Positions 10,012-53,686 of a stretch of DNA of 64,000 bases are shown piece after piece. The notes below the pieces were generated by a model that was not told the origin of the DNA, did not search any database, and saw only the letters and a list, made by a program, of their open reading frames with translations. The DNA is from Lysobacterales bacterium 63-13. Its GTDB lineage: Bacteria > Pseudomonadota > Gammaproteobacteria > Xanthomonadales > Rhodanobacteraceae. Location of the stretch: the NCBI GenBank assembly GCA_001899855.1, contig MKWR01000022.1, forward strand, positions 6,456-70,455, in the 5' to 3' direction. Positions within the stretch are counted from its first letter, which is position 1. Each line of letters begins with the position of its first letter. Made by a program: the position numbers and the translations under genes.

Positions 10012-10060
10012 GACGATACTCCCCTTTGCCTTGTCAACAAGCCATTGAAAAAGAATTCCC

Positions 10061-11752: not shown

Positions 11753-12024
11753 CGGCAGCAGCGACCCCGGGGAAACCCCAAGTGTAGTCGACTGCCGGCC
11801 AAGCTTCACCGGTTGCCGCGGGAATCACCGCAAACCGGCGTCATGCACCAGCCCGCATGTTTCATGATTTCGCGCGATGATCGCGCAGGATCGCGTTTGC
11901 ACAAGGGATTTCCCGAAGCAGCGCCGTATCGGGCCATATGGTCGACTGAGGGAAATCCCATGTGCGGACAAGAGACCGGCGAGGGCGCGTGCAATTCATG
12001 AATCATGCGGGCTAGCATCGACAC

Positions 12025-20668: not shown

Positions 20669-20757
20669 GCTGCGTTCCCTCCCAGGTACGCGGCGATGGT
20701 GCCACGTGCCGCGCCCGGGCGACCAGCCATGCGCGTGCTCACGCTAGAATCCGGCGC

Positions 20758-22266
20758 ATGCCGCAATCCCGCCTGCCCCTGCGCCTGATCCTGCTTGGCT
20801 TGCTCGCCATCGCCGTGGTCGTCGTCATCTGGCTGGCCATCGGCATGATCAACGGCCTGCTCGAGTTCCACGAACGCCTGCTCGGCTTGCCCATGCTGGT
20901 GCGCGTGCCGCTGATCGTGCTGGTTGCCGCCGCCTGCGCCGGGCTCGCCTGGCTGGCCTGGAAGCTGTTGCGGCCGACGCGGCGAGGTGCGCGACCAGGC
21001 GGCAAGCCGCTCGTCGCGGATCGGCAAACCATCGAGACGCGAGTCGCCGACCTCGCCGCACGCAACGCCGATGTGGCCAGCCTCGAGGAGGAATTGATCG
21101 AGCTCGACCGCCGCCGCCTCAGCGGCGAATGCCATGTCGCCGTGTTCGGCGAGATCAGTACCGGCAAGTCGAGCCTGATCCGCAGCCTGGCCAGCGCGGC
21201 AGCACCCGAGGTCGATGTGCTCGGCGGCACCACGCGCTGGATCAGGCACTACCGCGGCAGCTTGCCCGACGGACGCGAGCTGATGCTGGCCGACATGCCC
21301 GGCACCGGCGAGGTTGCCGGCAGCCAGCGCGAGCAACTGGCGCGCGACGAGGCGTTGCGCGCGCACGCCGTGATCTATGTCGTCGCCTCGGACCTGACCC
21401 GCGCCCAGGATGCCGAATTGCGCTGGCTGGCGGATTTCGGCAAGCCGCTGATCCTCGCCCTGAACAAGCTCGACCAGTTCGACGAAGCTGCGCGCGCAAC
21501 CTTGCTCGATGCCTTTGCCGAGCGCTATGCCGGCGTCTGCCGGGCCATCGTCGGCATCAGCGCGGGCGGCAGCGAACGCTTCGATCGCCGCCTGCCAGAC
21601 GGTCGCATCGAACAGGTCACGCGCGAGCGCCGCGCGGAGGTCGACGACCTCCTCGATGCCCTGATGGCCGTCACCGCCGGCGGCGCGGCAACGCTGGAAG
21701 CAGGTCGCCAGGCGGCGGTGCTGGCGCATGTCGACCAGCGCAGCCAGCACCTCGCCCGCGACGTCGCCGAACGCGAGGCCGAATTGACCGTCGTCCGCTA
21801 CACGCGCCGCGCCGTGATCGGGGCCATGGCCGCGGTTGCCCCGGGCAGCGACATCATCATCCAGGGCGCGCTGGGCACGGCCATGGTGCGCGAACTCGCA
21901 CGCATCCACGATGTGCCGGTGCGCGAACTCGATGTCGAGAACCTGCTCGCCCGCCTTGGCCTGACCCTGCGCAACACGACGGCCATCGTGCTGGCCATTG
22001 CCGGCAATGCGCTGAAGGCCTTCCCGGGGCTGGGCACGCTGGGCGGCGGCGTCCTGCATGCCATTGCCTATGGCCTGGCGTTTGATTCACTCGGCCGGGC
22101 CATTGCCCAGACCCTCGCCGCACACGCGCGCCTCGACCAGGCCGAGGCCGAGTCAGCCATGCGCAAGCTGCTCACCGAGCCGAGTCGCGAGCGTGTCGAG
22201 CGCGTCACCCGCGTGGTCATCGACAGCCTGCGCAACCGCGACGCCCGGGCGGCAGGCGACGATTGA
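20758..22266 (+). CDS. Membrane-anchored P-loop GTPase with C-terminal DUF697-like helical region
   Basis: Two N-terminal TM helices; G1 GEISTGKSS, G3 DMPG, G4 NKLD; C-terminal AVAPGSDIIIQGALGTAMVRELARIHD. Confidence 0.75.
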   Translation: MPQSRLPLRLILLGLLAIAVVVVIWLAIGMINGLLEFHERLLGLPMLVRVPLIVLVAAACAGLAWLAWKLLRPTRRGARPGGKPLVADRQTIETRVADLAARNADVASLEEELIELDRRRLSGECHVAVFGEISTGKSSLIRSLASAAAPEVDVLGGTTRWIRHYRGSLPDGRELMLADMPGTGEVAGSQREQLARDEALRAHAVIYVVASDLTRAQDAELRWLADFGKPLILALNKLDQFDEAARATLLDAFAERYAGVCRAIVGISAGGSERFDRRLPDGRIEQVTRERRAEVDDLLDALMAVTAGGAATLEAGRQAAVLAHVDQRSQHLARDVAEREAELTVVRYTRRAVIGAMAAVAPGSDIIIQGALGTAMVRELARIHDVPVRELDVENLLARLGLTLRNTTAIVLAIAGNALKAFPGLGTLGGGVLHAIAYGLAFDSLGRAIAQTLAAHARLDQAEAESAMRKLLTEPSRERVERVTRVVIDSLRNRDARAAGDD

Positions 22267-24082: not shown

Positions 24083-25456
24083 GTGCATGCGGACGGCAAC
24101 TGGTGGCAGCGCCTGCGCGGGCGCTTCACGCGTTCCGCAGCCGCAGTCGAAACGCGCCCGATGCCGGGCGAGGGCCATCATGGCCAGGCCGAGGAAAGCC
24201 TGCGCGCCCTGCTTGAAGATCCGCAGGTGCCGCAAGCCGTGCGCACCTCGCTGGCGGCCGACTTCGAGCGCCTGGAGGCGATGCTCGGCAAGCTCGAGCG
24301 CGATGAGCTGCATCTGGCCGTGTTTGGTCGCGTCAGCGCCGGCAAGTCGGCGCTGGCCAATGCCCTGCTTGGCGAGAACGCATTCGAAGTCGGCGTCCTG
24401 CATGGCACGACACGCGAAGCGACGCCGCGACGATGGCAGGAAGTCGCCGGCAGTGGCGTGCACCTGATCGACACGCCCGGCATAGACGAGCTCGATGGCG
24501 AGGCCCGCGAACAACTGGCCAACGAGGTTGCCGCGGTCAGCGACCTGGTCGTGTTTGTCGTCGATGGCGACATGACCACGCGTGAGCGCGAGGCACTGGT
24601 GCAGCTCGCGCAGACCGAGCGCCCGCTGCTGCTCGCCTTGAACAAGGCCGATCGCTACGACGACGAGGAACTCGCGCGCCTGCTGGCACGATTGCGCGAA
24701 CACGCGACGTCACTGGTGCAGGCCGAGGATGTCGTCGCGGTCAGCGCGCAACCACCGCCGCTGCGTCGCCTGTCGATCGATGCCGAAGGCCACGAGCAGG
24801 TGGAGATGATCCCGCAAGTGGCCAACATCGATGCCCTGCGCAATCGCCTGATCGAGGTGCTGACCCGCGAGGGGCGGACCCTGGCGGCGCTCAATGCCAG
24901 CCTGTTTGCCGGGCGCCTGACCGACGCCGTGGCCAGGCGCATCGTCCTCGCCCGTCGCGAACTGGCCGCCAAGGTCATCCGCCAGTACTGCATCGCGAAA
25001 AGCATCGCCGTCGCCTTGAATCCGATCCCGGTCGCCGACCTGCTCGCCGCCGGTGCGCTCGATGCGGCGCTGGTCATGCACCTGGCGCGGGTCTACGGGC
25101 TGCCGATCACGCGCCGCGAAGCCGGTGGCCTGATCACCACGATCTGCGCGCAACTGGCTGCGCTGATGGGCGCGATCTGGGGCATCCACCTGGTTGCTTC
25201 GGCACTCAAGGGCATCAGTGCCGGCATGTCGACCGTGCTCACCGCAAGCGCCCAGGGCGCGCTCGCCTGGTACGCCACGGAAATCGTCGGCCGCGCCGCC
25301 GACCGCTATCTGGCCGCCGGAAAATCCTGGGGTGATCTCGGCGCCAAGCGCGTGGTCAGCGACATCGTCGCCAGCCTCGATCGCGACTCGATCCTGCGCG
25401 AGGCCCGCGGTGAAATCCTGCGCCGGCTGCGCAACCGCGATGCGCTGGAACCCTGA
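24083..25456 (+). CDS. P-loop GTPase with C-terminal DUF697-like region
   Basis: G1 GRVSAGKSA, G3 DTPG, G4 NKAD; C-terminal AVALNPIPVADLLAAGALD. Confidence 0.78.
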   Translation: MHADGNWWQRLRGRFTRSAAAVETRPMPGEGHHGQAEESLRALLEDPQVPQAVRTSLAADFERLEAMLGKLERDELHLAVFGRVSAGKSALANALLGENAFEVGVLHGTTREATPRRWQEVAGSGVHLIDTPGIDELDGEAREQLANEVAAVSDLVVFVVDGDMTTREREALVQLAQTERPLLLALNKADRYDDEELARLLARLREHATSLVQAEDVVAVSAQPPPLRRLSIDAEGHEQVEMIPQVANIDALRNRLIEVLTREGRTLAALNASLFAGRLTDAVARRIVLARRELAAKVIRQYCIAKSIAVALNPIPVADLLAAGALDAALVMHLARVYGLPITRREAGGLITTICAQLAALMGAIWGIHLVASALKGISAGMSTVLTASAQGALAWYATEIVGRAADRYLAAGKSWGDLGAKRVVSDIVASLDRDSILREARGEILRRLRNRDALEP

Positions 25457-30648: not shown

Positions 30649-32475
30649 TCAGGGCATGATGTCATCCGCCACGGCTTTCGGCATCAACGAGATGACGATG
30701 GCCCCGGCACCTGCATGCGCGCCAATCGCGCTGCCGGCCTCAAGCAATTCGGCGCATTCGACATGCGCCAGTTGCGCGATCAGGGCGTCGCGGACGCGGG
30801 CCCCTTCCGCGGCGTTGTCGCAATGCATGACCTGGGCGCGCCAGCGCTGCCTGCGATCAATGCGACGCAGGATGCGGGCGACGAAGCGCGCGGCGAAATC
30901 GCGATGATCGCGGGCCACGCCAAACACGTGCATACGCCCGTCGCCGCCGCCAATGCGCGCCATCGGCACGAGGCCCAGCCAGCGCGTGATCGGCAGGGTC
31001 CAGGCTGGAATGCGCCCGCCACGAACCGCCGAAGTCAGGTCGCGCACATAGGCCCAGGTGCTGGTGCGCTCACGCAGCGCCTCGACCTCACGCACGATGG
31101 CGGCTGCGTCGAGTCCGGCCAGGGCGCGCTCGGCGGCATGCACGGCGAGCAGGCCCTGGCCACCGGAGACGTTTGCGGTATCGACCACGCGCACCTGCCC
31201 GCCGAGCGCGGCGCTGGCCGCTTCGGCGCACTGCAAGGTGCCGGAGACGGCGCGGGAAAGGCCGATGTAGACCACTTCCTCGTGATGGCTCAGGAGAAAA
31301 CCGAACATGCGCCGGAAATCCCCGACCGGCGGCTGCGAGGTGCGCACCGCTTGCCTGCTCTCGCGCAACATCGCGTAGAAGGCATCGGAGGACAGTGAAA
31401 CCTTGTCGAGGAAATCCTCGGCACCGACGTTGATGCGTACCGGCACAACGTTCAGCGGCAGGTGTTCCAGTGCATCCGCCGGCACATCGGCCGCCGAATC
31501 GGTGACGATGACCACCTTGCCACGCGTGTGTGCGGCACGCTGCTGCGACTGCATGTCATCGGCCTTGCGCGCACGCACCTCGCCGAACGCGGACAAGGTC
31601 TCGAACAACAAGGCGGGATCATCGACATGCATGTGCACGCGCAGCTTTTCGCGCGTGCCGGCAAGCACCTGGCTCGATCCGCCAAGTCGGTCAAGCGCCT
31701 GGCGCACCGCGTTGCGATCGATCGCCACGCCCGAGAGCACGCATTCGCTGCACCAGCGATGGGTTTCTCCGGCGGCCAGTTCCTCACTGGCCACGACGCC
31801 CACTTCCGCTGCGGCAGTCGACCTGGAATAAGCACCCGCCGCGCGACCGCTGCGGATGTACTCGTCGATGCCTTCGAGCAGGTGCAGGAAACCTTGCGCA
31901 CCGGCATCGACGACGCCGGCCTTGCGCAATACGGCGAGCTGGTTCGGCGTATTCGCCAATGCGGCACGGCTTGCCGCAAGCGCATGCGTGAACGCCGTGC
32001 GCAAGTCATCGATGCCCTGGTCACACGCTTGCCGCAGCGAAGCCGCAAACGCGCTGATCACCGAAAGCATGGTGCCCTCGCGCGGCTCGGCGATCGCCTG
32101 GCGGGCCTGGCTGGCACCGAGATCGGCGGCATTGGCCAGCGGGCACAGGGTCAAGCGCTGATGCGTGCCGAGGACTTCGCCGAAGCCCTGCAGGAATTGC
32201 GCAAGGATCGCCCCGGAGTTGCCGCGCGCGCCATCGATGGCCTCGCTCGCCACGCGTTCGAATACCGCCCCGGCATGGTTGCCGCGCATGTCGCGCAGGG
32301 CCTCGCGGACACTGGCCAGGGTGAAGCCGAGATTGCTGCCGGTATCGCCATCCGGAACCGGAAACACGTTGATGCGGTTGAGCAGATCACGCTCGGCGAT
32401 GACCCGGCCAATACCTGCAATCAGGGCTTGCTTGAGCACGCGACCATCAGTGTCCGCGTGGATTCTGGCTGTCAT
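30649..32475 (-). CDS. DAK2 (FakA-like)-DegV (FakB-like) fusion, putative fatty acid kinase
   Basis: INVFPVPDGDTGSN, GARGNSGAIL, EPREGTMLSV, WCSEC..HMHVDDP..KADDMQ, then DegV motifs IVTDSAAD, TSQP, SGT; ATG 32475. Confidence 0.88.
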   Translation of the reverse strand: MTARIHADTDGRVLKQALIAGIGRVIAERDLLNRINVFPVPDGDTGSNLGFTLASVREALRDMRGNHAGAVFERVASEAIDGARGNSGAILAQFLQGFGEVLGTHQRLTLCPLANAADLGASQARQAIAEPREGTMLSVISAFAASLRQACDQGIDDLRTAFTHALAASRAALANTPNQLAVLRKAGVVDAGAQGFLHLLEGIDEYIRSGRAAGAYSRSTAAAEVGVVASEELAAGETHRWCSECVLSGVAIDRNAVRQALDRLGGSSQVLAGTREKLRVHMHVDDPALLFETLSAFGEVRARKADDMQSQQRAAHTRGKVVIVTDSAADVPADALEHLPLNVVPVRINVGAEDFLDKVSLSSDAFYAMLRESRQAVRTSQPPVGDFRRMFGFLLSHHEEVVYIGLSRAVSGTLQCAEAASAALGGQVRVVDTANVSGGQGLLAVHAAERALAGLDAAAIVREVEALRERTSTWAYVRDLTSAVRGGRIPAWTLPITRWLGLVPMARIGGGDGRMHVFGVARDHRDFAARFVARILRRIDRRQRWRAQVMHCDNAAEGARVRDALIAQLAHVECAELLEAGSAIGAHAGAGAIVISLMPKAVADDIMP

Positions 32476-32618
32476 CGGCTGACGGAATGGCGAAAGGTGA
32501 ATGGAGTTTAGCCTGAACGATTCCCGCCCCGCGCGCAGGCGAATTGCGCATCCCGGCAGGGCATGGCGGCGTCCGCGCCAGGAGCCAGCGAAGTCCGAGG
32601 ACGGCAAAGTGGCCACAA

Positions 32619-32665
32619 GCGGACACTGGCAGCGTCCGCGAGTGTCCGCAGGTGTCCACTGGACA
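32619..32665. promoter_or_regulatory. Cluster of GTGTCC/GGACAC motifs, candidate enhancer-binding-protein sites
   Basis: GCGGACACT-N13-AGTGTCCGC inverted repeat followed by TGTCCACTGGACA palindrome, about 60-100 bp upstream of the sigma54-like promoter. Confidence 0.4.
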
Positions 32666-32720
32666 GGTGATGTGTCGTGCAATTGTCCCTATGTCATTGA
32701 AAATAAAGGACAGCGAAGTT

Positions 32721-32738
32721 CTGGCATGATAGCTGCTA
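32721..32738 (+). promoter_or_regulatory. sigma54 (-24/-12) promoter candidate
   Basis: CTGGCATGATAGCTGCTA; GG and GC at canonical spacing versus YTGGCACG-N4-TTGCW; AT-rich tract just upstream. Confidence 0.55.
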
Positions 32739-32874
32739 TGACTTTCGGGCCATCCAGCGCGCAGGACAGCGCGCGCTGCCGGAAATCCACTCTTGGTGGT
32801 TTCAGCCCGGGGATCATGGGAACATCCCGGATTCCGCGCAGATTCCGCACGTTGCAGCCTCACGGAGACGCCGC

Positions 32875-33249
32875 ATGAATTCGCCGAAATGGATGCTTGT
32901 CCCTGCCTGCTTGGCCTTGCTGCTGGGCGTCGCTGCCGCACAGGCGGGCGAAATCTCGATGGACGTGGGCGGGCTGGCCGTGGCAATGCAAGGGCCATCC
33001 AGCGACGACGCGCCGGCACAGCCCAGCCAGTCGAGCACGGATGCCGGCAGCTACGAAATGCCGGCAAGCCAGTCCCGACGCTGGCGCATGACTTCCCCCG
33101 GCTCAAGCAACCAGGGACTCGCCGATGACGCCGGAGTGATTGCCGAAGCGCCTGCGACCTCGACCGCAGGCAGTTCCAGCAACGCATTGCCCACGGCATC
33201 GAAACCACGCAATCGCTGGCAATCACTGGTTCCCGGCGCGATCCGCTGA
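32875..33249 (+). CDS. Small secreted Ser/Ala/Pro-rich protein with C-terminal RWQSLVPGAIR motif
   Basis: Signal peptide (AAAQA), low-complexity body, ordered-looking C-terminal tail. Confidence 0.7.
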   Translation: MNSPKWMLVPACLALLLGVAAAQAGEISMDVGGLAVAMQGPSSDDAPAQPSQSSTDAGSYEMPASQSRRWRMTSPGSSNQGLADDAGVIAEAPATSTAGSSSNALPTASKPRNRWQSLVPGAIR

Positions 33250-33455
33250 CACGCGCCGCAAGTTCCCGCGCGGCGTAAGGCAGGGTCGGCGTTCGGCCAG
33301 TCGCACTGTCGACTTCGGCCAGCGCATTGCGCAGGCAACTTGCACCCGGTTCGGACAATTCGTCTGGCGACGCAACCGGCCAACTCTGCCCGCTCGGGTT
33401 GCACAGTCCCGACAAGCCATCTAGCCTAGCTGATTATCTTCACGACTCCCTGCCA

Positions 33456-36182
33456 ATGTTGGTTCCCGTTGCCCTCGCGCGCCTGTGTAGGCGCCTGATC
33501 CCGCTCACCCTGCTCTCTATCCCGCTGCTGCCGCTGTCGGCCCTGGCGTGCAGCGGTGTCCTGCATATTGAAATCGAGGCTGGCGGTGTCTACGCGCTCG
33601 ATCACGCGGCGATTGCCGAACGTCAGCCCGATCTCGCCGATTGCGCGAGCGACCAGCTCAGCTTGAACAATGCCGGCAAGGAAGTGCCGATACGCGTGCT
33701 GGATGGCGGCGACGGCAAGTTCTCGGCCGGCGATTCCATCGAATGGATCGGCCAGCCGCTGCACGGTCCGGAAAGCTGGTTCAATTCCTACAGTGTCAAC
33801 AATGTCTACCTGCTCTCGGCCAGCAGCGGTGCGCATGCGCGCCTGCGCGACGAGGCGGCCGGCGGCAGCGGCGCGGCCAGCCTCCTGCGCAGCCTGCACC
33901 TCGAGCAGGAAAACATGATGATCCGCCTCGACCAGAATCAGCAGAAGCCGGGCGAGGAACCGGATGTCTGGCATTGGGCCAAGCTGACCCAGGCCGATCC
34001 GGCACCGTTTTCAACGCGCTTCGATCTGCCCGATCTCGCCGCGCACGGCGCCGATGCCACCTTGCGCATCAATTTCCGCGGCATATCCACCATCGTCGTG
34101 CCGATGGATCGACAGAAGGATCGCCCCAGCGACCATCTGGTCGAGGTGCGCATCAATGGGCACCTGCTCGATCGCATCGGCTGGAATGGCCGTGACGAGT
34201 TCGCGCAGGAGCTGAAGGTGCCGCTGCAGGATCTGCGCGCCACCGGGAACGAGCTCGTGCTGTCGATCCCGAAACGGACCCTGGCGTGGAATCCGGCGCA
34301 GACCGCGATTGACGTGGTCATGTTCAATTGGATCGAGTTCGACTATGCGCTGGCCGCAACACTGGCCGCCGACTCGCCGCCGCTGCAGGCCGCGGATTCT
34401 TCAAGGCGGCCGATCGAGCTGCAATGGCGCGGCGCCGGGACGGCACCGGCGCTGTACGGCGAAGACGGCGTGCGGCGCCCGCCAACAGCCCTGGGCGGCA
34501 ATCGCTATCGCTACGCCGGGGCAGCGCCAGGCGTCGACTTGTATGCGGCAACGAGTCCCGCCACGCCGCTCCTGCTGCGCGCATCGGCGAAACAGGACTG
34601 GCGCTCGCCGGCGCAGGGCTATGACTACCTGATGGTCAGTCACGCCAGCCTGATCGATGCCGTGCGGCCGCTTGCCGAGTTCCACGAGAAGCGCGGCATG
34701 AAGGTGGCGTTGATCGACATTGCCGATGTCTATGACGAGTTCAACCACGGCATCACCCATCCACAAGCGGTGCGCGCCCTCGTCGACACCGCCTGGCATG
34801 ACTGGCCGCAACCGCGCCCGCGCTTCCTGCTGCTGGTCGGCGATGCCAGCTTCGATATCCGCAGCAAGACCTACAACGATCTTGCCTACGCCAAGTTCGC
34901 GAACAGCCCGCAGGAACTCGTGCCCGGGCATTTTTCCGGAATCCCGGCGACCGCCTACTCGGCCGACAGCAAGAGCATGGGCAGTCGCAACCTGATCCCG
35001 ACCTGGCAATTCCCTTCGATGGAAGGCCAGTCGGCCAGCGACAACTGGTTTGGCGCGGTGGATGGCGATGATTACCACCCGGTGGTCGCGGTCGGCCGTT
35101 TTCCGGTTGTCGAACCGGCTGAAGTCAGCGCGATCGTGAAGAAGACCATCGATTACCTGAGCAGTCCGCGCCCCGGCAGCTGGCGCCGCGATGTCATGTT
35201 CATCACCGACGAGTCCTCGCATTTCAAGAATGCCTCCGACCAGATTGCCGGCAGCATCAGCAAGCAGGGCTTCCTTGCCGACAAGATCTACGCCAGCCCG
35301 GACGAGGCCGACAACCTGGCCCACCAGAGCGCGATCAAGGATGGCCTCAATGACGGCCAGTTGCTGGTGCATTTCATCGGCCATGGTGGCCGTTACATCT
35401 GGCGCACCGGCCCGCCGGACCTGCGCAAGAACCACGACCTGTTCACCCTCGATGACGTCAGCGAATTGAACAACAGCGGACGCCTGCCGATGGTGCTGTC
35501 GATGACCTGCTATTCGGCGCCGTTCGACAACCCGACCGAGGATTCGATTGGCGAACGCTTCCTGCGCGAGGCCGACAAGGGCGCGATCGCCGTATTCGCC
35601 GCCTCGTGGCGCAATGCGCCGTCGACGCGCTTCAGCGAGAACCTGGTCAGCGAGCTGCTGGTGCCGGGAGCGACCATTGGCGAAGGCATCGTGCGGGCGA
35701 AGAAGAGCATCGACGACCGCACCCTGGTGGAAATGTACAACCTGCTTGGTGATCCGGCCGTGGTGCTGGAACGGCCACAGGCAAAGGCGAAGATGCAGGT
35801 CGATGGCGATCGCTGGAACCCGGCCGTGCTGATCGCCTTGCCCGACCCCGGATTTTCCGGCCAGATCAGCCTGAACTGGCTCGACGAGGAAGGCGGGCTG
35901 CTCGGCACTTCGAACTATCAGGTCAGCCAGGCAACCGTGCGCGTGCCGATCCCGCGTTTTGCCGACGGCAAGATCGCCGGTTTCGTCGGTGCCTATGCGA
36001 ACGATCCGCACAGCGGCCGCGATGCCGTTGCCGGCATCAAGATCGATGTCAAGCCGAGCACGCGTGGCAGCGGCATCCGCTGGCCGCAGTGGTCCTCGGC
36101 GGGCTCCGGCGGCAAGCCGCTGAGCAGCGACACGATTTCGCGCAGCGGCTTCGAGCGCGTGGCGGAGGCCAAGGCCGGTTGA
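33456..36182 (+). CDS. C25 family (gingipain/PorU-like) cysteine peptidase, secreted
   Basis: SDNWFGAVDGDDYHPVVAVGRFP, catalytic His VHFIGHGG, catalytic Cys SMTCYSAPF, MYNLLGDP; signal peptide from ATG 33456. Confidence 0.85.
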   Translation: MLVPVALARLCRRLIPLTLLSIPLLPLSALACSGVLHIEIEAGGVYALDHAAIAERQPDLADCASDQLSLNNAGKEVPIRVLDGGDGKFSAGDSIEWIGQPLHGPESWFNSYSVNNVYLLSASSGAHARLRDEAAGGSGAASLLRSLHLEQENMMIRLDQNQQKPGEEPDVWHWAKLTQADPAPFSTRFDLPDLAAHGADATLRINFRGISTIVVPMDRQKDRPSDHLVEVRINGHLLDRIGWNGRDEFAQELKVPLQDLRATGNELVLSIPKRTLAWNPAQTAIDVVMFNWIEFDYALAATLAADSPPLQAADSSRRPIELQWRGAGTAPALYGEDGVRRPPTALGGNRYRYAGAAPGVDLYAATSPATPLLLRASAKQDWRSPAQGYDYLMVSHASLIDAVRPLAEFHEKRGMKVALIDIADVYDEFNHGITHPQAVRALVDTAWHDWPQPRPRFLLLVGDASFDIRSKTYNDLAYAKFANSPQELVPGHFSGIPATAYSADSKSMGSRNLIPTWQFPSMEGQSASDNWFGAVDGDDYHPVVAVGRFPVVEPAEVSAIVKKTIDYLSSPRPGSWRRDVMFITDESSHFKNASDQIAGSISKQGFLADKIYASPDEADNLAHQSAIKDGLNDGQLLVHFIGHGGRYIWRTGPPDLRKNHDLFTLDDVSELNNSGRLPMVLSMTCYSAPFDNPTEDSIGERFLREADKGAIAVFAASWRNAPSTRFSENLVSELLVPGATIGEGIVRAKKSIDDRTLVEMYNLLGDPAVVLERPQAKAKMQVDGDRWNPAVLIALPDPGFSGQISLNWLDEEGGLLGTSNYQVSQATVRVPIPRFADGKIAGFVGAYANDPHSGRDAVAGIKIDVKPSTRGSGIRWPQWSSAGSGGKPLSSDTISRSGFERVAEAKAG

Positions 36183-36184
36183 AC

Positions 36185-37051
36185 ATGGCTGCGCTTGCGG
36201 CTTTGCTTGAACTTGCGCGACCGGCGCAATGGATCAAGAACGGTTTCGTCCTGCTGCCGCTGTTCTTTGCCCACGCGCTGTTTGATCAAGCCGCGCTGAG
36301 CGGAGCGCTGTTGGCGACGCTGGCATTCTGCCTCGCCGCCTCGGCCGTGTACGCCTACAACGACACGCGCGATGCGGCGCGCGATCGCCTGCACCCAGAC
36401 AAGCAGCAGCGGCCGCTGGCGCGCGGCGCCATCACGCCACGCGCCGCGCTTGCATTCTCCGCCTTGCTCTGCGTGGCTGCCCTTGCCGTCGCCGCATTGA
36501 CCCATGCCGGCGTCGTCGCCGTGATCGCGATCTACCTGCTCCTGCAACTGGCTTATTCGCAGGGACTCAAGCGCATCGCCTGGCTCGATGTCGGCATTGT
36601 CGCCAGCGGCTTTGCCTTGCGCATCGTTGCCGGTGGCCTTGCCGCCAACGTGCCGCTGACACCGTGGATCCTCGCCATGGGCTTCCTGCTCGCGCTGATG
36701 CTTGCCCTCGGCAAGCGCCATGGCGACCTCATCCATGTCACCGATCCCGCCGCGCGCACGGCCGCACGCTATGACGTGAGCACGATCGAATGGGTGCTTG
36801 CCGGCCTCGCCGGCGCGGTGCTGGTGGCCTACGTGTTCTATACGATCTCGCCCGACGTGGTCGCCCGCCATGGCCACCGCGCCCTGGCCTGGTCGACACC
36901 CTGGGTCGCCCTGGGCGTGCTGCGTTATCTGTTCCTGGTGTTCAAGCGCGGTGCTGGCGGTGATCCGAGCCGCCTGGCGCTGCGCGATCCATTCCTGCTT
37001 GGCGCAACCCTGGGCTGGTTGCTCACCTTGACCTGGGTGCTCTATCGCTGA
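36185..37051 (+). CDS. UbiA family, decaprenyl-phosphate phosphoribosyltransferase-like
   Basis: RPAQWIKNGFV, YAYNDTRDAARDRLHPDKQQRPLARG, LALGKRHGDL, GDPSRLALRD. Confidence 0.85.
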   Translation: MAALAALLELARPAQWIKNGFVLLPLFFAHALFDQAALSGALLATLAFCLAASAVYAYNDTRDAARDRLHPDKQQRPLARGAITPRAALAFSALLCVAALAVAALTHAGVVAVIAIYLLLQLAYSQGLKRIAWLDVGIVASGFALRIVAGGLAANVPLTPWILAMGFLLALMLALGKRHGDLIHVTDPAARTAARYDVSTIEWVLAGLAGAVLVAYVFYTISPDVVARHGHRALAWSTPWVALGVLRYLFLVFKRGAGGDPSRLALRDPFLLGATLGWLLTLTWVLYR

Positions 37052-37108
37052 GCGCCCCATCGTCGCCGCATTCCGGCGACAATGGCCGCTCTTGATTCGG
37101 GGATTCGC

Positions 37109-38317
37109 GTGCCGGCATTCGCCTACCAGGCTCTGGACAACAACGGCAAGACCCAGCGCGGCGTGCTGCAGGGCGATACCGCGCGCGCGGTTCGCGGCAT
37201 CCTGCGCGAACGCGGCCTGAATCCGCTGGCGGTCGATGAAGTCGCCGAGGGACGCAAGGGCGCAAGTCCGTTTGCGCGACGCGGTTTGTCGGCCACCCAG
37301 CTGGCCCTGCTCACGCGCCAGCTCTCGACCCTGGTCGCCGCCGACTTGCCAATCGACGAAGCCCTTGCCGCGCTCTCCGAGCAGGATGACAACGAGCGCC
37401 AACGCGCACTGACAGTGGCCTTGCGCGCGCGGGTCATGGAGGGTGCCAGCCTGGCCATGGCCATGGCCGACTTCCCGGACAGCTTCCCCGAGATCTTCCG
37501 CGCCACGGTCGCTGCCGGCGAGCAATCCGGCCATCTCGCCCGTGTCCTCGACCGCCTCGCCGACTATGCCGAGGCGCGCGACGCGTTGCGCCAGACCCTG
37601 CTTTCCGCGCTGACCTATCCGCTGCTGCTGACCCTCGTCGCCATCGCCGTCGTTGCCGGCCTGTTGACCTGGGTCGTGCCGCAGATCATCGGCGTGTTCG
37701 AGAACATGCAGCAAAGCCTGCCGCTGGCCACGCGCCTGCTCATGGGGCTTTCCGATTTCCTGCGCCACTGGGCCTGGCTGCTGATCGGCCTGGTCGTGCT
37801 CGACGTGATCGGCATTCGCCTTGCCCTGCGCCGCGAAGCGGTACGCTTCCGCTGGCATCGCCTCCTGCTGCGCCTGCCGTTGATTGGCCGCCTCACCCGC
37901 GCAGCGAACACGGCGCGAGCGGCGCGTACCCTGGCCTTGCTTGCCGGTGCCGCGGTGCCCCTGCTCGATGCGCTGGCCATTGCCGCGCAGGTTGTGCCGA
38001 ACCTGCCCATGCGCGAGTCGCTGCGCCATGCCGCGTTCAAGGTGCGCGAGGGCAGCGGCTTCGCCCGCGCGCTTGCCGAGAGCAAACAGTTTCCACCCGT
38101 GGCCCTGCGCCTGATCGCCAGTGGTGAACGCTCCGGCGAACTGCCGCGGATGCTCGAGGAGGCGGCCGCGCAGCAGCAACGTGATCTCGATCGCTGGCTC
38201 GGCGTGCTCGCGGCGACCCTCGGCCCGGCCGTGATCCTCCTCGTCGGCGCCATGGTCCTGTTCATCGTCCTCGCCATCCTGCTGCCGATCTTCGATTTGA
38301 ACCAGATGGTCAAGTAG
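37109..38317 (+). CDS. gspF: Type II secretion inner-membrane platform protein GspF
   Basis: PAFAYQALD..GK...G, TRQLSTLV, AGEQSGHL, LTYP, SGERSGEL, AILLPIFDLNQ; GTG 37109 (alternative ATG 37082). Confidence 0.9.
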   Translation: MPAFAYQALDNNGKTQRGVLQGDTARAVRGILRERGLNPLAVDEVAEGRKGASPFARRGLSATQLALLTRQLSTLVAADLPIDEALAALSEQDDNERQRALTVALRARVMEGASLAMAMADFPDSFPEIFRATVAAGEQSGHLARVLDRLADYAEARDALRQTLLSALTYPLLLTLVAIAVVAGLLTWVVPQIIGVFENMQQSLPLATRLLMGLSDFLRHWAWLLIGLVVLDVIGIRLALRREAVRFRWHRLLLRLPLIGRLTRAANTARAARTLALLAGAAVPLLDALAIAAQVVPNLPMRESLRHAAFKVREGSGFARALAESKQFPPVALRLIASGERSGELPRMLEEAAAQQQRDLDRWLGVLAATLGPAVILLVGAMVLFIVLAILLPIFDLNQMVK

Positions 38318-38458
38318 CCGGGAATCGGGAATGGGGAATAGGGAATGGTAAAAGCGAAATGCACAAGCGAAGCAGAAACAACGCGGATTGTTGGTGCGAC
38401 AGCAATCTGCTATTGCCTTGCTTGATCGATTCCCTATTCCCCATTCCCGATTCCCGGC
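38317..38458. repeat. REPIN/MITE-like hairpin with 30-bp perfect terminal inverted repeats made of GGGAAT-type units
   Basis: GCCGGGAATCGGGAATGGGGAATAGGGAAT (38317-38346) is the exact reverse complement of 38429-38458. Confidence 0.85.
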
Positions 38459-38464
38459 CCGCCA

Positions 38465-39139
38465 ATGATCCACTTCGACAATGTCAGCAAACGCTATGCC
38501 GGGGGCCATGAGGCGCTGAACGGACTCAGCTTCGAGGTGACGGCGGGCGAAATGGTCTTCGTGACCGGGCATTCCGGTGCCGGCAAGACCACCTTGCTCA
38601 AGCTGCTGGGCTTGATCGAGCGGCCGACGCGGGGCGAGATCGTGGTCAACGGCGCGGCGCTCGCCCGCGTGCGCCAGCGCGCGATCCCGCAGGTGCGCCG
38701 CGGCATCGGCATGGTCTTCCAGAATCATCGCCTGCTGATGGATCGCAGTGTCTTCGACAACGTCGCCCTGCCGCTGGCCATTGCCGGCGCGGGTGCCGAG
38801 GAGACTGCCAAGCGCGTGCGCGCGGCACTCGACAAGGTGGCCTTGCTGGACAAGGAGCGTGCCGCTCCGGCAACCCTGTCGACCGGCGAACAGCAGCGCG
38901 TCGGCATCGCCCGCGCCCTGGTCGGCAAACCGCCGTTGATCATTGCCGATGAACCCACCGGCAATCTCGATCCGCAACTTTCCATCGAGATCATGAACCT
39001 GTTTGCCGAGTTCCAGCAGGTCGGCACCACGGTGCTGATCGCCAGCCATGACCTGCACCTGATCCGGCACATGGGCAAGCGCGTGCTGGTCCTCGACCAC
39101 GGTCGACTGATCGACGACTTCCGGCCACAGGCAGACTGA
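38465..39139 (+). CDS. ftsE: Cell division ATP-binding protein FtsE
   Basis: GHSGAGKTT, LSTGEQQRVGIARA, ADEPTGNLD, ASHD; upstream of ftsX. Confidence 0.95.
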   Translation: MIHFDNVSKRYAGGHEALNGLSFEVTAGEMVFVTGHSGAGKTTLLKLLGLIERPTRGEIVVNGAALARVRQRAIPQVRRGIGMVFQNHRLLMDRSVFDNVALPLAIAGAGAEETAKRVRAALDKVALLDKERAAPATLSTGEQQRVGIARALVGKPPLIIADEPTGNLDPQLSIEIMNLFAEFQQVGTTVLIASHDLHLIRHMGKRVLVLDHGRLIDDFRPQAD

Positions 39140-45519: not shown

Positions 45520-46740
45520 TCAGGTCAAGGCAAGACTGATCAGCCCGGCAAAAGCCAGGGCAAAGGAAAGGATCACCGAGTAACTGATGCCGATCATGCC
45601 GTACTTGATGAAGGTCATCGTCCAGCCCTGGCGATAGACGCGCTTTTGCATGAGGAACAAATAGAGGAACAACCAGATCCAGGCCATCGCCGTCAGCCAG
45701 CCCAGCGGCTGGCTCAGCCACACTCGCGCGCCGGCAAGGTCAGCGAGCTGGCCGAGGCCGAGGATGACCAGCACCGACATGAAGATGAAGGCATGGCTGT
45801 GCAAGGCAACCAGCAGGTGCTCCATGTACAGCCGCCGCTTGAACAGGTAGAAAAACTTGAGCAGCACGGCAAACAGCGGCATCAGCACGAACAGGGTCTG
45901 CGGCAATACCGAGAAGAACCCGGCGAGCAGGCGCCCCGGATCCTTGTTCACGTTATCGAGGTTTTCCTGCATGTGCGCCAGCGTGTGGTTGAGCCGTGCA
46001 TTGAGCCCGTCGGACAACCAGGTGATGTGCACCGGGTTGCTCTGTGCATCCCAGGGTTGCCCACCGAACAGGTTGATCGTCGCCGCACGCTTCTTCGCCG
46101 GGGCGGCCCCCGGCTCCGCTGCCGGCATCTTTGCCGCGCTCTCCAGTTCTGCGAGGCGATCGACGCCACGTTTGCGCGCCCTTTCGATTTTTTCCTCGAG
46201 CCTGGTCTGCGCCTTTGCCGACAAGGCCGGAACCTCCAGGGCGACATGCAATTCGGCGACGGTCGCGGCAACGGCCTTGTTCACCTCCTCGGCGGTCGCG
46301 GCCGCTTCGATGTCGTCCTGCACGGCGAATTTGAGCTCGTCCGGCTTGATCTCGGGCAAGGCCATCTGCATGGAGAAGAAAGCGATGATGGAGAGGAAGA
46401 AAAACAGGCGGAACGGTGTCACGTAGCGGGCGCGCCGCCCGGCGACATATTCCGTGGTCAGGTAGCCGGGGCGGACGTACAGGTCCCATAGCGAGCGGAA
46501 GATGCGCGAATCGACATTGAAGACGATGTCGGCAAGATCGGACATGACTTCGGACAGGTGCCGGATCATGCCTTTCTCGGACTGGCCGCAGGCGTAGCAA
46601 TACGGCCCATGCGCCGGCGCGCCGCAATTCGGGCAGGTGCGCAGCGGCGAGTCCGGCAATGGTGCCGTGAATTCCGCGTCAGCCGTTGCCTGCGCCGGCA
46701 ACGGCGGCGGCGGTGGCGGCAGTTCGATATTCGCGCTCAT
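45520..46740 (-). CDS. DUF3667 domain membrane protein
   Basis: CPNCG...GPYCYACGQ, DSRIFRSL..L..RPGYLTTEYVAGRRARYVTPFRLF. Confidence 0.85.
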   Translation of the reverse strand: MSANIELPPPPPPLPAQATADAEFTAPLPDSPLRTCPNCGAPAHGPYCYACGQSEKGMIRHLSEVMSDLADIVFNVDSRIFRSLWDLYVRPGYLTTEYVAGRRARYVTPFRLFFFLSIIAFFSMQMALPEIKPDELKFAVQDDIEAAATAEEVNKAVAATVAELHVALEVPALSAKAQTRLEEKIERARKRGVDRLAELESAAKMPAAEPGAAPAKKRAATINLFGGQPWDAQSNPVHITWLSDGLNARLNHTLAHMQENLDNVNKDPGRLLAGFFSVLPQTLFVLMPLFAVLLKFFYLFKRRLYMEHLLVALHSHAFIFMSVLVILGLGQLADLAGARVWLSQPLGWLTAMAWIWLFLYLFLMQKRVYRQGWTMTFIKYGMIGISYSVILSFALAFAGLISLALT

Positions 46741-47048
46741 CGTGGTCCCAGCATTCCTTGGTCGCGCAGCCAGTTGCAGGCGTCGCCCACCCGCAGCTGC
46801 AGCGGCATGCTGCGGCAGCCCGGTTCAGGTTTCGCCGTGCTCGATTCGACCCGCGGATGATGACAGGTGCCGGCATTCATTCCAGCAGGTGCCCGCCGAG
46901 AAATCCGCTTGCTCCGATCAGCATCACCCGCATGCGCTCTACTCCGTTTCGTGGTGGCGCTCCAGCGATCGCTGCGCAATCGCCCGGGCGCATCGTCAAC
47001 AAGCCTGTTGCCCGCCGCTATACTCCGCGCCCGCAGAAAGCATTCCCG

Positions 47049-48416
47049 ATGACCGCCATTCTATCCAGCGACCGGCCACGGTTGGCCAGCGAACTTGATG
47101 CCACGATCCGTCTTGCCGCGCCGCTGGTGCTTGGCCAGCTCTCGGCAATCGGCATGAACCTGATCGATACCGTGCTCGCCGGTCATCTCGATGCGCACAC
47201 GCTTGGCGCAGTCGCCCTCGGCAGCAATGTCTGGACGCTGGCCATCATCACCATCATCGGCATGATGATGGCGCTGCAGCCCTCGGTTGCGCAGTTGCGC
47301 GGCGCCGGCCGCGAACACGAAATCGGCGCCGTGTTCCGCCAAGCGCTGTGGCTGGCCGTGCCGCTCGGCATCGGCCTTGGCCTTGCCGCGGCATTCCTCG
47401 GCCCGCTGCTGTTCGGCCTGATCGGCGTCGATGCCAGCCTGGTCGCCGACGCCAGCGCGTTCCTGCGGGCGATTGCCTGGGGCGCACCGGCGTTGTCGGT
47501 GTTCTTCGCCTTGCGCGGCCTCAGCGAAGGCATGGGCATGACCCGGCCAACCATGTATTTCAGCCTGCTCGGATTGATTCTGCTCGGCCCCTTTGGCTAT
47601 GTGCTGATGTATGGGGCCTTCGGCATCCCGCGCCTTGGTGCCTTCGGTTGCGGCATCGCCACGGCCATCGTGCTGTGGCTGCAATGCGCGGCCTTCGCCG
47701 TGTATGTCGCGCGCCGCGCGCGCTATCGCGACCTGCATCTGCTGGCGCGTTTCGATCGACCGCATCGGCGCACCCTGCTCGATCTGCTCAATATTGGCGC
47801 ACCCATCGCGGTGACCCTGCTCATGGAAGCCGGCTTGTTCGTCGCCGTCGCCCTGACCATCGGCAAACTCGGTGCCGATGTCATTGCCAGTCACCAGATC
47901 GCCATCAACATCGCCTCCGTCGTGTTCATGGTGCCGCTGGGCATCGCCATGGCCACCACCGTGCGCGTCGGCTACGCGCGCGGGCGCAACGATGGCCACG
48001 GCGTGCGCCAGGCGGCGGCCGTCGGCATGCTGCTGACGCTGGGCATGCAGGTACTTTCCGCGACCTTGCTGTTCAGCGTTCCGGAAAAGATAGCGTCGAT
48101 GTACACCAACGATGCCGCGGTTATTGCCCTGTCCGCGCAATTGCTTGTCCTGGCGGCGATTTTCCAGCTCTCCGACGGGATCCAGGCGGCCTCCAACGGC
48201 GCCTTGCGCGGGCTCAAGGACACGCGCCTGCCGATGCTCATCTCGGGTTTTGCCTATTGGGGCGTGGGCATGCCGGTCGGCCTCTGGCTGGCCTTCCACA
48301 ACGGTCTCGGTGCCGCCGGCATGTGGATCGGGCTGATTGCCGGACTCAGTGTCGCCGCCATCCTGCTGACCTCGCGCTTCTGGTCCATTGCACTGAAACT
48401 GCCTGCCAGCGCCTGA
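47049..48416 (+). CDS. MATE family efflux transporter (NorM-like)
   Basis: LAAPLVLGQL, IDTVLAGHL, ASHQIAIN, ALRGLKDTR; about 12 TM; ATG 47049. Confidence 0.93.
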   Translation: MTAILSSDRPRLASELDATIRLAAPLVLGQLSAIGMNLIDTVLAGHLDAHTLGAVALGSNVWTLAIITIIGMMMALQPSVAQLRGAGREHEIGAVFRQALWLAVPLGIGLGLAAAFLGPLLFGLIGVDASLVADASAFLRAIAWGAPALSVFFALRGLSEGMGMTRPTMYFSLLGLILLGPFGYVLMYGAFGIPRLGAFGCGIATAIVLWLQCAAFAVYVARRARYRDLHLLARFDRPHRRTLLDLLNIGAPIAVTLLMEAGLFVAVALTIGKLGADVIASHQIAINIASVVFMVPLGIAMATTVRVGYARGRNDGHGVRQAAAVGMLLTLGMQVLSATLLFSVPEKIASMYTNDAAVIALSAQLLVLAAIFQLSDGIQAASNGALRGLKDTRLPMLISGFAYWGVGMPVGLWLAFHNGLGAAGMWIGLIAGLSVAAILLTSRFWSIALKLPASA

Positions 48417-51503: not shown

Positions 51504-51610
51504 GAGAATGGGGAATCGGGAATGGGGAATCGGTCGAGCAGCATCGGCCAACAATCTGAATGTGCCCATGGATTCAATCCTCTATCCCCTATTCGCTATT
51601 CCCTATTCCC
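51504..51610. repeat. Degenerate second copy of the GGGAAT hairpin element
   Basis: GAGAATGGGGAATCGGGAATGGGGAATCGG ... TATCCCCTATTCGCTATTCCCTATTCCC in the SDR-alkA gap. Confidence 0.7.
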
Positions 51611-53185: not shown

Positions 53186-53686
53186 ATGATGCTCTACGAC
53201 ACAATCAAGTCGCCCATTGGAATGATCGTGCTGGCCGGAGACGGCAAGGCGCTTCAACTTGTCGGGCTGCCGGAATCACGTCATCCCGTGCCAATCACAT
53301 CCGCATGGACACGCCGTGCCGACTTGTTCGTCGAGGCCAGGCGGCAGTTCGACGCGTACTTCGCCGGCGAGCTGACCGATTTCGACTTGCCGCTGGCGCC
53401 ACACGGAAGCGAATTCCAGCAGCGCGTGTGGCAGGCGCTGCGCACGATCCCGTATGCGGCGACGATCAGTTACGGCGAACTCGCGCGGCGCATCGGCAAT
53501 CCGCGGGCGAGTCGCGCGGTCGGCCTTGCCAACGGAGCCAATCCGCTGTCGATCATCGTGCCCTGCCATCGCGTGATTGGCGCGAACGGGTCACTTACCG
53601 GTTATGGCGGCGGCCTTGCGGCAAAGCGGCACCTGCTCGATCTGGAACGACATCACGCGTCGCGTGAGCACTTCACGTTGTCGTAA
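53186..53686 (+). CDS. ogt: Methylated-DNA-protein-cysteine methyltransferase
   Basis: FQQRVWQAL..IPY, RAVGLANGANPLSIIVPCHRVIG. Confidence 0.95.
   Translation: MMLYDTIKSPIGMIVLAGDGKALQLVGLPESRHPVPITSAWTRRADLFVEARRQFDAYFAGELTDFDLPLAPHGSEFQQRVWQALRTIPYAATISYGELARRIGNPRASRAVGLANGANPLSIIVPCHRVIGANGSLTGYGGGLAAKRHLLDLERHHASREHFTLS

Follow-up and report, generated by a model that had tools for sequence, protein, structure and literature searches.

Envelope proteins are re-anchored by exosortase (PEP-CTERM), which is encoded with glycan loci, and by rhombosortase (GlyGly-CTERM), which acts on T2SS cargo. To our knowledge, the sole C25 enzyme known as a sortase is PorU, which is regarded as specific to the T9SS and to Bacteroidota. 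PorU serves the T9SS of Porphyromonas gingivalis as both C-terminal signal peptidase and sortase, coupling proteins to A-LPS (PMC4560394, PMC8545088), and a published survey found the T9SS to be restricted to Bacteroidetes (PMC4793230). UbiA-type polyprenyl-phosphate 5-phosphoribosyltransferases (PPPRS) generate polyprenyl-phosphate 5-phosphoribose from PRPP, both in three-component pentofuranose systems and in mycobacterial DPPR synthesis (PMC11127046), and the biochemistry of systems that run from PPPRS through a flippase to a GT-C enzyme has been described (PMC11127046, PMC11194591).

The window analyzed here, a 64-kb stretch of DNA from a Dokdonella-like gammaproteobacterium of soil or wastewater, places a PorU-like C25 peptidase gene directly upstream of a gene for such a UbiA-type enzyme. 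Four ORFs, all on the plus strand, make up the locus: a small ORF of 124 aa with a signal-peptide-like N-terminus (32875–33249), the C25 peptidase (33456–36182, 908 aa), a UbiA polyprenyl-phosphate 5-phosphoribosyltransferase of the DPPR synthase/PPPRS type (36185–37051, 288 aa), and gspF, encoding a T2SS inner-membrane platform protein (37082–38317, 411 aa). The C25 stop codon TGA occupies 36180–36182 and is followed by AC and then by the ubiA ATG at 36185, leaving a gap of 2 nt; ubiA and gspF are separated by 30 nt. By their GC content at each codon position, C25, ubiA, and gspF behave as real genes. Promoter and terminator consensus scans across 32400–38700 returned no matches, and a 142-nt hairpin with arms made of GGGAATN heptamers lies directly 3′ of the gspF stop codon (38317–38458). 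Because the two gaps are short, no terminator is predicted between the genes, and a strong hairpin follows gspF, the three genes may be cotranscribed in the clade of the window, with the hairpin as the likely 3′ boundary of the predicted transcript; the public sequencing runs that were found are all DNA metagenomes, with no RNA among them.

The C25 protein begins with a hydrophobic signal sequence ending in ALA followed by C, and all aligned relatives likewise start with a signal sequence. It continues with β-sandwich domains (approximately aa 35–380), the catalytic domain (aa 391–771; Pfam Peptidase_C25, PF01364, E = 7e-81), an Ig-like domain (aa 779–862), and a tail of 41 disordered residues (aa 868–908); distant relatives stop right after the Ig-like domain. 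The active site motifs read FIGHGG (aa 640–645) and MTCY (aa 683–686). Their His643 and Cys685 are invariant among 43 aligned C25 sequences, with identity down to 28%, and align with the catalytic dyad of PorU and RgpB. The earlier note had described an intact, exported C25 peptidase in a gammaproteobacterial host, preceded by a small secreted protein and followed 2 nt later by a ubiA gene and then by gspF, and every part of this description was borne out. The T9SS has not been found in the host lineage (PMC4793230), and a Pfam scan of the 54 candidate ORFs of the window detected no genes for PorV, PorZ, PorQ, GldKLMN, or SprA.

Whether the peptidase is closer to PorU or to the gingipains was examined by sequence and by fold. 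A sequence search of the PDB matched PorU with E = 3.7e-16 and the gingipains with E values of only about 1e-4 (1e-4 to 1e-3). Foldseek searches with an AF2 model of the peptidase (pLDDT 88) ranked PorU (6za2) first, with an alignment that spans the whole length (~980 columns, E = 4.8e-35), although the TM-score is only 0.44 and the identity 15 to 16%. The gingipains RgpB and Kgp (1cvr, 4ief, 4rbm) followed at E = 1e-22 to 1e-20 over ~500 columns. They share with the window protein the C25 fold, the dyad, and the Ig-like domain that follows, and the match covers the catalytic and Ig domains only; gingipains lack the N-terminal domains seen in the window protein. PorU, in addition to the catalytic domain, dyad, and Ig-like domain, appears to share the preceding β-sandwich domains. 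Both searches thus place the peptidase nearer PorU, yet it scores below the cutoffs of the NCBIfam models for the T9SS sortase (NF033707, 213.8 bits versus 420) and PorU2 (NF052324, 146.9 bits versus 450). Gingipains, moreover, travel through the T9SS as cargo and possess both a prodomain and a C-terminal domain (CTD); no T9SS CTD was recognized in the window protein by Pfam, by NCBIfam, or in the model.

A family search with a limit of E ≤ 1e-3 returned 14,342 representatives, of which 2673 reach E ≤ 1e-30, and the full-length matches show 33 to 51% identity; those with names belong to Thermoanaerobaculia, Holophagae, and other Acidobacteriota. The C25 gene is carried by 419 GTDB species. Judged by these matches, this is a very large, uncharacterized family of thousands of 50%-identity clusters, found mainly in Acidobacteriota and Rhodanobacteraceae, and one that to all appearances operates without a T9SS. 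We retrieved 80 species loci, no two of them from the same assembly, and in each the gene is present as a single copy; conservation of the protein extends along its entire length, noncatalytic domains included. A literature search for C25 or PorU homologs outside Bacteroidota, or for C25 peptidases tied to glycosyltransferases, yielded nothing relevant.

We likewise know of no previous description of a PPPRS-type enzyme partnered with a C25 peptidase. The window UbiA matches Pfam UbiA (PF01040, E = 1e-22) and narrowly misses the cutoffs of NCBIfam NF008977, the decaprenyl-phosphate phosphoribosyltransferase model (210.2 bits versus 234), and NF008978 (191 bits versus 207). It aligns over its full length with the mycobacterial synthase Rv3806c (8j8j; aa 4–282 against 14–295, E = 9.6e-34) and retains the motifs NDxxDxxxD, here NDTRDAARD, and GKR. 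By Pfam, it has no fused HAD or PRP phosphatase domain, unlike the characterized ORF15 (Kelly et al. 2024, PMC11127046). Unlike three-component pentofuranose systems, it has no GT-C, epimerase, or flippase gene adjoining it, and the whole 64-kb window contains no GT-C homolog, FN3 lipoprotein, phosphatase, or dedicated flippase. The sole MatE gene (46686–48416) is 9.6 kb away, with ftsEX, ung, rpoH, and priA in between.

Gene order was compared at related loci. The adjacency of C25 and ubiA recurs in at least four flanking contexts, namely the clade of the window, in which gspF follows, and three or more in which gspF is missing (L055/L057, L047, and L034). The gap between the two genes is about 2 to 10 nt but widens to as much as about 55 nt in L055. 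In L047 the pair faces a cluster of FHA, GT2, and glycosyltransferase–sulfotransferase genes, and the C25 gene of Dokdonella fugitiva faces the same cluster. Many C25 loci of Dokdonella and Tahibacter nevertheless lack ubiA, and most C25 loci of Rhodanobacteraceae have neither ubiA nor gspF. Since closely spaced genes tend to remain adjacent even without a common function, we take the retention of the pair as no more than moderate evidence that the two gene products are functionally coupled, as judged from gene order.

A second, independent comparison used 84 C25 loci from outside the Rhodanobacteraceae (the distant set), which are mostly Acidobacteriota-like. A gene for an FN3 lipoprotein adjoins C25 in 64 of these; in 55 it lies immediately 3′ on the same strand, and downstream sequence of 900 bp or more is available for only 68. 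This lipoprotein is ~140 aa long and highly conserved, with a basic APPKRR tail. The possibility that it is a look-alike of the T9SS CTD was considered and dropped, as modeling gave only generic FN3 matches (best E = 3e-3). GT-C genes of the PMT_2 type occur near C25 in 31 of the 84 loci, and immediately 5′ of it in 18; upstream sequence of 1.5 kb or more is available for only 49 loci. The encoded proteins have 7 to 10 predicted transmembrane segments and an invariant GDE motif after the first; four of the six tested match Pfam PMT_2 (best E = 2.5e-10), and a profile of them found no match by sequence among solved structures. Sulfotransferase genes and sulfatase-TPR genes each occur near C25 in 17/84 loci, and further glycosyltransferases, including Leloir-type enzymes, are common. 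Proteins of ~255 aa encoded 5′ of acidobacterial C25 genes were rejected as a conserved partner, being homologous neither to one another nor to the Peptidase_M90 of Rhodanobacteraceae.

UbiA itself adjoins C25 in only one of the 84 loci. There is, in one distant lineage (L163), an order of C25, lipoprotein, and an HAD::UbiA fusion that scores 595 bits on NF006088 and thus carries the HAD domain that the window UbiA lacks. Two proteins, P0274 and P0292, join a Glyco_trans_1_4 domain to a C25 module. In P0292, a single transmembrane helix separates the cytoplasmic glycosyltransferase from the C25 module; this arrangement would make the C25 module periplasmic and tie it to glycan synthesis. The same lipoprotein and GT-C genes are also found in Rhodanobacteraceae: in Tahibacter, Pseudolysobacter, and some Dokdonella, a GT-C gene and an FN3 lipoprotein gene, the latter 55 to 64% identical to that of the distant loci, lie within 10 kb of C25. 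Among the best 120 of 480 lipoprotein matches, none could be assigned to C25-bearing contigs of the clade of the window. Members of the present family differ from PorU in having GT-C, the FN3 lipoprotein, or UbiA as neighbors instead of PorV, PorZ, or PorQ, and the fusion protein places the C25 module at the inner membrane rather than at the cell surface.

These comparisons bear on the model of the earlier note, in which the peptidase, as an analog of PorU, would cut T2SS cargo and attach it to a pentose glycolipid derived from UbiA, with gspF as the functional connection to type II secretion. The likeness to PorU, the three co-oriented genes with a hairpin only after the last, and a gene order kept in about 27 related loci are all consistent with it, and gspF is genuine (TIGR02120, 471.5 bits versus a cutoff of 424; Pfam T2SSF in two stretches). 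However, those 27 loci belong to one monophyletic Dokdonella subclade, where the adjacency arose once and runs on into the housekeeping genes ftsEX-ung-rpoH. The order is not conserved across Xanthomonadales, nor even within Dokdonella, being absent in D. fugitiva and D. ginsengisoli; single-copy C25 genes without gspF are found in other Dokdonella, Tahibacter, and Pseudolysobacter. gspF is flanked by ubiA and ftsE instead of gsp operon genes, further gsp genes are missing for ~25 kb in both directions and from 17–56 kb of the window, and the only T2SSE-family gene, encoding a 413-aa ATPase (793–2034), is 31 kb away. In the distant set, T2SS-like genes were found at a single locus (L083, from Thermoanaerobaculia), where C25 sits inside a cluster of T2SSE, T2SSF, and secretin genes; at 1/84, a recurring link to type IV filament systems was rejected. 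The fusion of a glycosyltransferase through a transmembrane helix to C25 also points to action at the inner membrane and not on secreted cargo. We therefore consider the T2SS-cargo model very unlikely. The more general part of that proposal, a link between the peptidase and lipid-linked sugars or glycans, gains independent comparative support from the GT-C, lipoprotein, and sulfotransferase neighbors and the glycosyltransferase fusions. We judge gspF to be a neighbor by lineage-specific rearrangement and not a component of the system: it would be an ordinary stand-alone T2SS platform gene that a rearrangement in one Dokdonella subclade put between ubiA and ftsEX-ung-rpoH.

UbiA and gspF could alternatively form the functional pair, with C25 as a bystander, if a lipid-linked pentose glycosylated pilins or pseudopilins as in the D-arabinofuranosylation of group IV pilins in Pseudomonas aeruginosa. 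In that gammaproteobacterial precedent, a DPPR-synthase homolog feeds the periplasmic GT-C enzyme TfpW, which modifies the type IV filament protein (bioRxiv 10.1101/2020.04.19.049825; Harvey 2011 via PMC11194591), and the 30-nt spacing of ubiA and gspF would suit such a pairing. The TfpW system is not known to involve a C25 peptidase. The window lacks a TfpW-like GT-C as well as DprE1/E2-type epimerases, and neither pilin nor pseudopilin genes lie close to the locus. In L047, L055, L057, and L034, ubiA stays with C25 and not with gspF. Of all the explanations weighed, this one strikes us as the least probable.

The reading that we favor, with a probability of roughly 45%, is that C25 and ubiA are what is left of a periplasmic glycan system that is undescribed and independent of the T9SS, and to which gspF is unrelated. 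GT-C enzymes draw on sugars linked to polyprenyl phosphate and do so on the outer side of the inner membrane. Because a UbiA enzyme of this type makes such a donor, it could act as a supplier for GT-C, and the PPPRS–flippase–GT-C logic of three-component pentofuranose systems matches the presence of GT-C genes beside C25 elsewhere. C25 and ubiA would then be a tightly coupled two-gene unit in which UbiA makes a lipid-linked pentofuranose for the periplasmic decoration of an envelope glycan. The Sec-exported peptidase, at the periplasmic face, would cleave a protein component of the glycan pathway and then join that protein to the glycan, as PorU does; it might instead merely process the protein. 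A sortase-like transpeptidation would be in keeping with the activity of PorU, which couples protein to glycan, and with the genomic ties of the C25 family to glycan synthesis. The resemblance to exosortase and rhombosortase would be one of concept only, a dedicated processing enzyme that re-anchors envelope proteins; both are polytopic membrane proteins with no relationship to C25, and their recognition targets are C-terminal transmembrane sorting signals, none of which was identified here.

A simpler possibility is that C25 is a secreted or periplasmic protease for degradation or maturation that takes no part in glycan chemistry, and that UbiA serves a separate envelope function, in LPS or another glycan, from a merely shared operon. 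The gingipains, which are the other characterized C25 members, are hydrolases, C25 is kept without an adjacent ubiA in many Dokdonella and Tahibacter genomes, and further glycan genes are absent both from the window and from the surroundings of C25 in one distant locus (L087). On the other hand, the gene is single-copy in all 80 species loci, the protein is conserved from end to end, its association across phyla with GT-C, a specific lipoprotein, sulfotransferases, and glycosyltransferases is very strong, and some members are fused to a glycosyltransferase. These features are atypical of a nutritional protease. We regard a plain protease as unlikely overall, although no other rival to the glycan-system reading carries as much weight.

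The glycan-system reading can be extended to a more specific and more speculative proposal. In Acidobacteriota and in Rhodanobacteraceae, including the Dokdonella of the window, a cross-phylum, T9SS-independent PorU-like sortase system might exist in which C25, acting on the periplasmic side of the inner membrane, attaches a protein of the envelope covalently to a polysaccharide. GT-C enzymes and polyprenyl-phosphate donors would serve to build this polysaccharide, which would carry pentofuranose decorations and possibly sulfate. The FN3 lipoprotein would be the first choice as the attached protein, and in the window the C25-ubiA operon would form the center of a pared-down variant of the system. 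We hold this full scheme to be rather improbable as it stands.

A PorU-related family of thousands of members, conserved over its full length, occurs in bacteria without a T9SS. Its genes consistently lie next to those for GT-C, one specific lipoprotein, and further glycan enzymes, with a lipid-phosphoribose synthase as the neighbor in Dokdonella. Should members of the family prove to attach proteins to glycans, they would represent a new route of protein–polysaccharide conjugation in diderms abundant in soil and wastewater, and would extend the recently described extracytoplasmic pentofuranose pathway. If its members are plain processing proteases, an attractive yet unsupported link to T2SS is still corrected.

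Two further elements flank the three genes. The small ORF upstream of C25 has no family match in Pfam or NCBIfam. It is conserved in relatives, with a signal-peptide-like N-terminus, a variable middle rich in Ser, Ala, and Pro, and an invariant C-terminus RWQSLVPGxI[KR], and elsewhere it precedes a Peptidase_M90 gene, not C25; by its gene context, it probably lies outside the C25 module. Peptidase_M90 accompanies C25 at 48 of 75 loci but is missing in the clade of the window, and on this distribution appears to be a synteny partner at the level of the family only. An Rfam scan of 32000–39000 gave a lone subthreshold match to a plant miRNA, which is caused by the hairpin after gspF. A second copy of this hairpin is present at 51504–51610.

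The peptidase gene belongs to a co-oriented run on the + strand, recognised by codon-position GC in a window whose G+C content is 63 to 69%. The gene (33456-36182, +; 908 aa) encodes a full-length Peptidase_C25 domain (Pfam, E 7e-81, residues 391-771), and its stop codon at 36180-36182 is separated by 2 nt from the ATG of a UbiA-family gene (36185-37051, +; 288 aa). After a further 30 nt follows gspF (37082-38317, +; TIGR02120, 471.5 bits against a cutoff of 424). A small ORF upstream (32875-33249, +) encodes 124 residues and has a start resembling a signal peptide. This layout, with intact catalytic His and Cys in the peptidase, had been described in an earlier note, whose observation proved right in all details. 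Downstream of gspF lie, in order, ftsE, ftsX, a response regulator gene, ung and rpoH, then priA on the opposite strand. The 5′ side carries, on the minus strand, a FakA/DegV fusion gene, birA (with a probable plsY, inferred from synteny), coaX and a gene for a SPOR protein. No terminator-like site was found between C25, ubiA and gspF, and the three may therefore be co-transcribed here.

The peptidase begins with a hydrophobic signal sequence and carries the motifs FIGHGG (His643) and MTCY (Cys685), both residues being invariant throughout the family. Its best sequence match among solved structures is PorU, the T9SS sortase of Porphyromonas gingivalis (6za2; E 3.7e-16), whereas the gingipains, the other characterised C25 peptidases, match at only about 1e-4. 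An AlphaFold model, computed with 43 homologues as input, was confident (pLDDT 88, pTM 0.88) and predicted N-terminal beta-sandwiches, a catalytic domain, an Ig-like domain and a disordered tail of 41 residues. PorU was also the top Foldseek match for this model (E 4.8e-35, whole chain aligned, TM 0.44), with the gingipains ranking below it, their match confined to the catalytic and Ig-like domains. The protein scored far under the cutoffs of the NCBIfam models for PorU (214 bits versus 420) and PorU2 (147 bits versus 450), and no T9SS C-terminal domain was found in it. Judged from sequence and predicted fold, the peptidase thus appears to be built like PorU but lies outside the curated PorU family, and by analogy it may work in a similar mode. 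Its homologues already bear the NCBI label "C25 family cysteine peptidase."

The nearest C25 homologues (58-99% identity) belong without exception to Dokdonella and other Rhodanobacteraceae. When species-representative genomes were scanned, 419 C25 loci were found, the best 80 of which are all from Rhodanobacteraceae, one per genome; gene order was mapped on these 80 by tblastn of the window genes. The order C25-ubiA-gspF-ftsE-ftsX-response regulator-ung-rpoH occurs in about two dozen loci, including those of D. immobilis and Dokdonella sp. MW10, and the gspF-linked loci form one clade in a quick neighbour-joining tree of the C25 proteins. Two other clades (loci L055/L057 and L034/L040/L047/L059) have C25-ubiA without gspF, in differing flanks: a glutaredoxin-rhodanese gene upstream in L055 and L057, a Cys/Met PLP enzyme gene downstream in L057, and in L047 a DUF6242 protein gene upstream and an FHA, GT2 and GT2-GT1-sulfotransferase cluster downstream in opposite orientation, a cluster that C25 also faces in D. 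fugitiva. In D. fugitiva, D. ginsengisoli, all Tahibacter and all Pseudolysobacter, C25 is adjoined by neither ubiA nor gspF. The single gspF clade and the varied surroundings of C25-ubiA indicate that gspF became a neighbour a single time, at the border of a housekeeping block, and that C25 and ubiA were kept together across several rearrangements; tightly spaced genes tend to remain adjacent whatever their function.

To survey the wider family, an exhaustive C25 search of 1.8 billion representatives was used, yielding 2,673 clusters at E<=1e-30, many matching full length at 33-51% identity. The named members belong to Acidobacteriota, among them Thermoanaerobaculia and Holophagae. Using tblastn, we analysed 84 loci outside Rhodanobacteraceae (six annotated contexts and 78 distant metagenome loci; two more loci from the metagenome scan were Dokdonella-type and kept out of the 84). 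Within about 10 kb, the range scored on these often truncated contigs, 64 of the 84 loci carry a gene for a lipoprotein of about 140 aa (directly downstream on the same strand in 55) and 31 one for a polytopic membrane protein (directly upstream of C25 in 18); sulfotransferases are encoded in 17 loci, and sulfatase-like TPR proteins likewise in 17. For the membrane protein 7-10 helices are predicted, the first of them followed by an invariant GDE motif; its match to Pfam PMT_2 (best E 2.5e-10) identifies it as a GT-C (membrane) glycosyltransferase. The lipoprotein consists of a lipobox, a Pro/Ala linker, an FN3-like domain and a basic APPKRR-type tail, is 55-78% identical between phyla, and matches no curated family in Pfam or NCBIfam. 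GT-C, C25 and FN3 lipoprotein genes form a conserved module in Acidobacteriota-type contigs (L083-L168), often accompanied by sulfotransferase, sulfatase-TPR and glycosyltransferase genes; in L086 they lie at 11009-12331 (-), 8001-10616 (+) and 10613-11038 (+), respectively. In Tahibacter, Pseudolysobacter and some Dokdonella, too, genes for the same lipoprotein and GT-C enzyme are found no more than 10 kb from C25. Two C25 proteins of about 1,360-1,390 aa, P0274 and P0292 (L084:8001-12185), include a Glyco_trans_1_4 domain. P0292 reads as an N-terminal cytoplasmic Glyco_trans_1_4 domain, one transmembrane helix and then the C25 module, an arrangement in which the lone helix would place the C25 module at the periplasmic face.

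Genes for T2SSE, T2SSF and a secretin occur together in only one of the 84 distant loci (L083), and no other T2SS gene was found at about 17-56 kb of the window. Among the window ORFs scanned, the sole further type IV filament-system gene encodes a T2SSE-family ATPase 31 kb away (793-2034, -; 413 aa), which, judging by its size, is more probably PilT/PilU-like than a GspE. In the Thermoanaerobaculia locus L083:1-13158, the C25 gene is situated within a Tad/T4P-like cluster (T2SSF, T2SSE, AAA_31 ATPase, secretin). The C25 family shows a strong and repeated association with lipid-linked-sugar glycan machinery, not with the T2SS. The earlier note had proposed that T2SS cargo is anchored to a pentose-containing glycolipid independently of a T9SS; the PorU-like peptidase and the glycan link survive from that proposal, whereas the T2SS link and a three-gene order conserved across Xanthomonadales do not.

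Over its full length the UbiA protein matches a mycobacterial enzyme of solved structure, decaprenyl-phosphate phosphoribosyltransferase (8j8j, E 9.6e-34), and it retains the NDxxDxxxD and GKR motifs, scoring just under the NCBIfam cutoff (210 versus 234). Enzymes of this kind convert PRPP to polyprenyl-phosphate 5-phosphoribose, and in Gram-negatives they feed a three-component pathway of synthase, flippase and GT-C transferase that puts pentofuranoses on extracytoplasmic glycans (PMC11127046, PMC11194591). That GT-C enzymes need polyprenyl-phosphate sugar donors is established biochemistry (PMC11127046). Because UbiA would make such a donor, the Dokdonella C25-ubiA operon fits the same putative pathway. 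A distant pairing of the two genes is anecdotal, a single case among the 84 loci (L163; order C25, lipoprotein, HAD::UbiA, the last scoring 595 bits on NF006088).

We infer a coupling of C25 to UbiA, a site of action and transpeptidation as follows. UbiA would supply polyprenyl-phosphate pentose for the decoration of a glycan in the periplasm; C25 would cleave a protein belonging to this pathway and, by analogy with PorU, its closest characterised relative, join the cleaved protein to the glycan. Where present, the conserved lipoprotein would be the obvious candidate substrate. To the most far-reaching reading, a cross-phylum periplasmic protein-glycan sortase system, we give a chance of roughly one in four. 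Singly, the genes of the locus are recognisable members of known superfamilies; the searchable literature described neither a PorU-like family that is independent of the T9SS and has GT-C, lipoprotein and glycan genes as conserved neighbours, nor a PorU-like peptidase paired with a phosphoribose-lipid synthase. The 64-kb window contains no GT-C enzyme, lipoprotein, phosphatase or dedicated flippase. MATE proteins serve as flippases in pentofuranose three-component systems. A MatE-family transporter is encoded at 46686-48416 (+; 576 aa for the ORF as drawn, with its MatE domains towards the C-terminus); its connection with ubiA is unlikely because it lies 9.6 kb off, past ftsEX, ung, rpoH and priA.

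Directly after the gspF stop codon lies a 142-nt hairpin (38317-38458; MFE -93.6 kcal/mol as RNA, z -11.3) with a 39-nt arm of 90% complementarity, the arms comprising four GGGAATN heptamers. A second copy is intergenic (51504-51610), and the heptamer-arm pattern has 8 matches in the window, where chance would give 0.02. Relatives differ in the length of the gspF-ftsE spacer (27 to 529 nt), a variation suggestive of a mobile, REP/MITE-like element. The 124-aa secreted protein has no family match in Pfam or NCBIfam, yet it is kept in both Dokdonella and Tahibacter (homologues at L001:6098-6502, L034:8717-9124 and L072:7837-8286). Its middle is variable and of low complexity, and its extreme C-terminus, RWQSLVPGxI[KR], is invariant. 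In other genomes its gene sits before a Peptidase_M90 (MtfA-like) gene that has been lost from the clade of the window.

The FakA/DegV fusion (30649-32682, -; 677 aa), conserved in position in Dokdonella and Tahibacter, joins a fatty-acid-kinase-like Dak2 domain, a FakA middle domain and a DegV (FakB-like) domain. Paralogous GTPase genes with MMR_HSR1 and DUF697 domains (20602-22266 and 24083-25456, both +) enclose YceI and cytochrome b561 genes. An Ada protein (Zn-binding and AraC HTH domains) fused to AlkA (51674-53137, +) and the ogt-like methyltransferase gene after it (53186-53686, +) look like an adaptive-response cluster.
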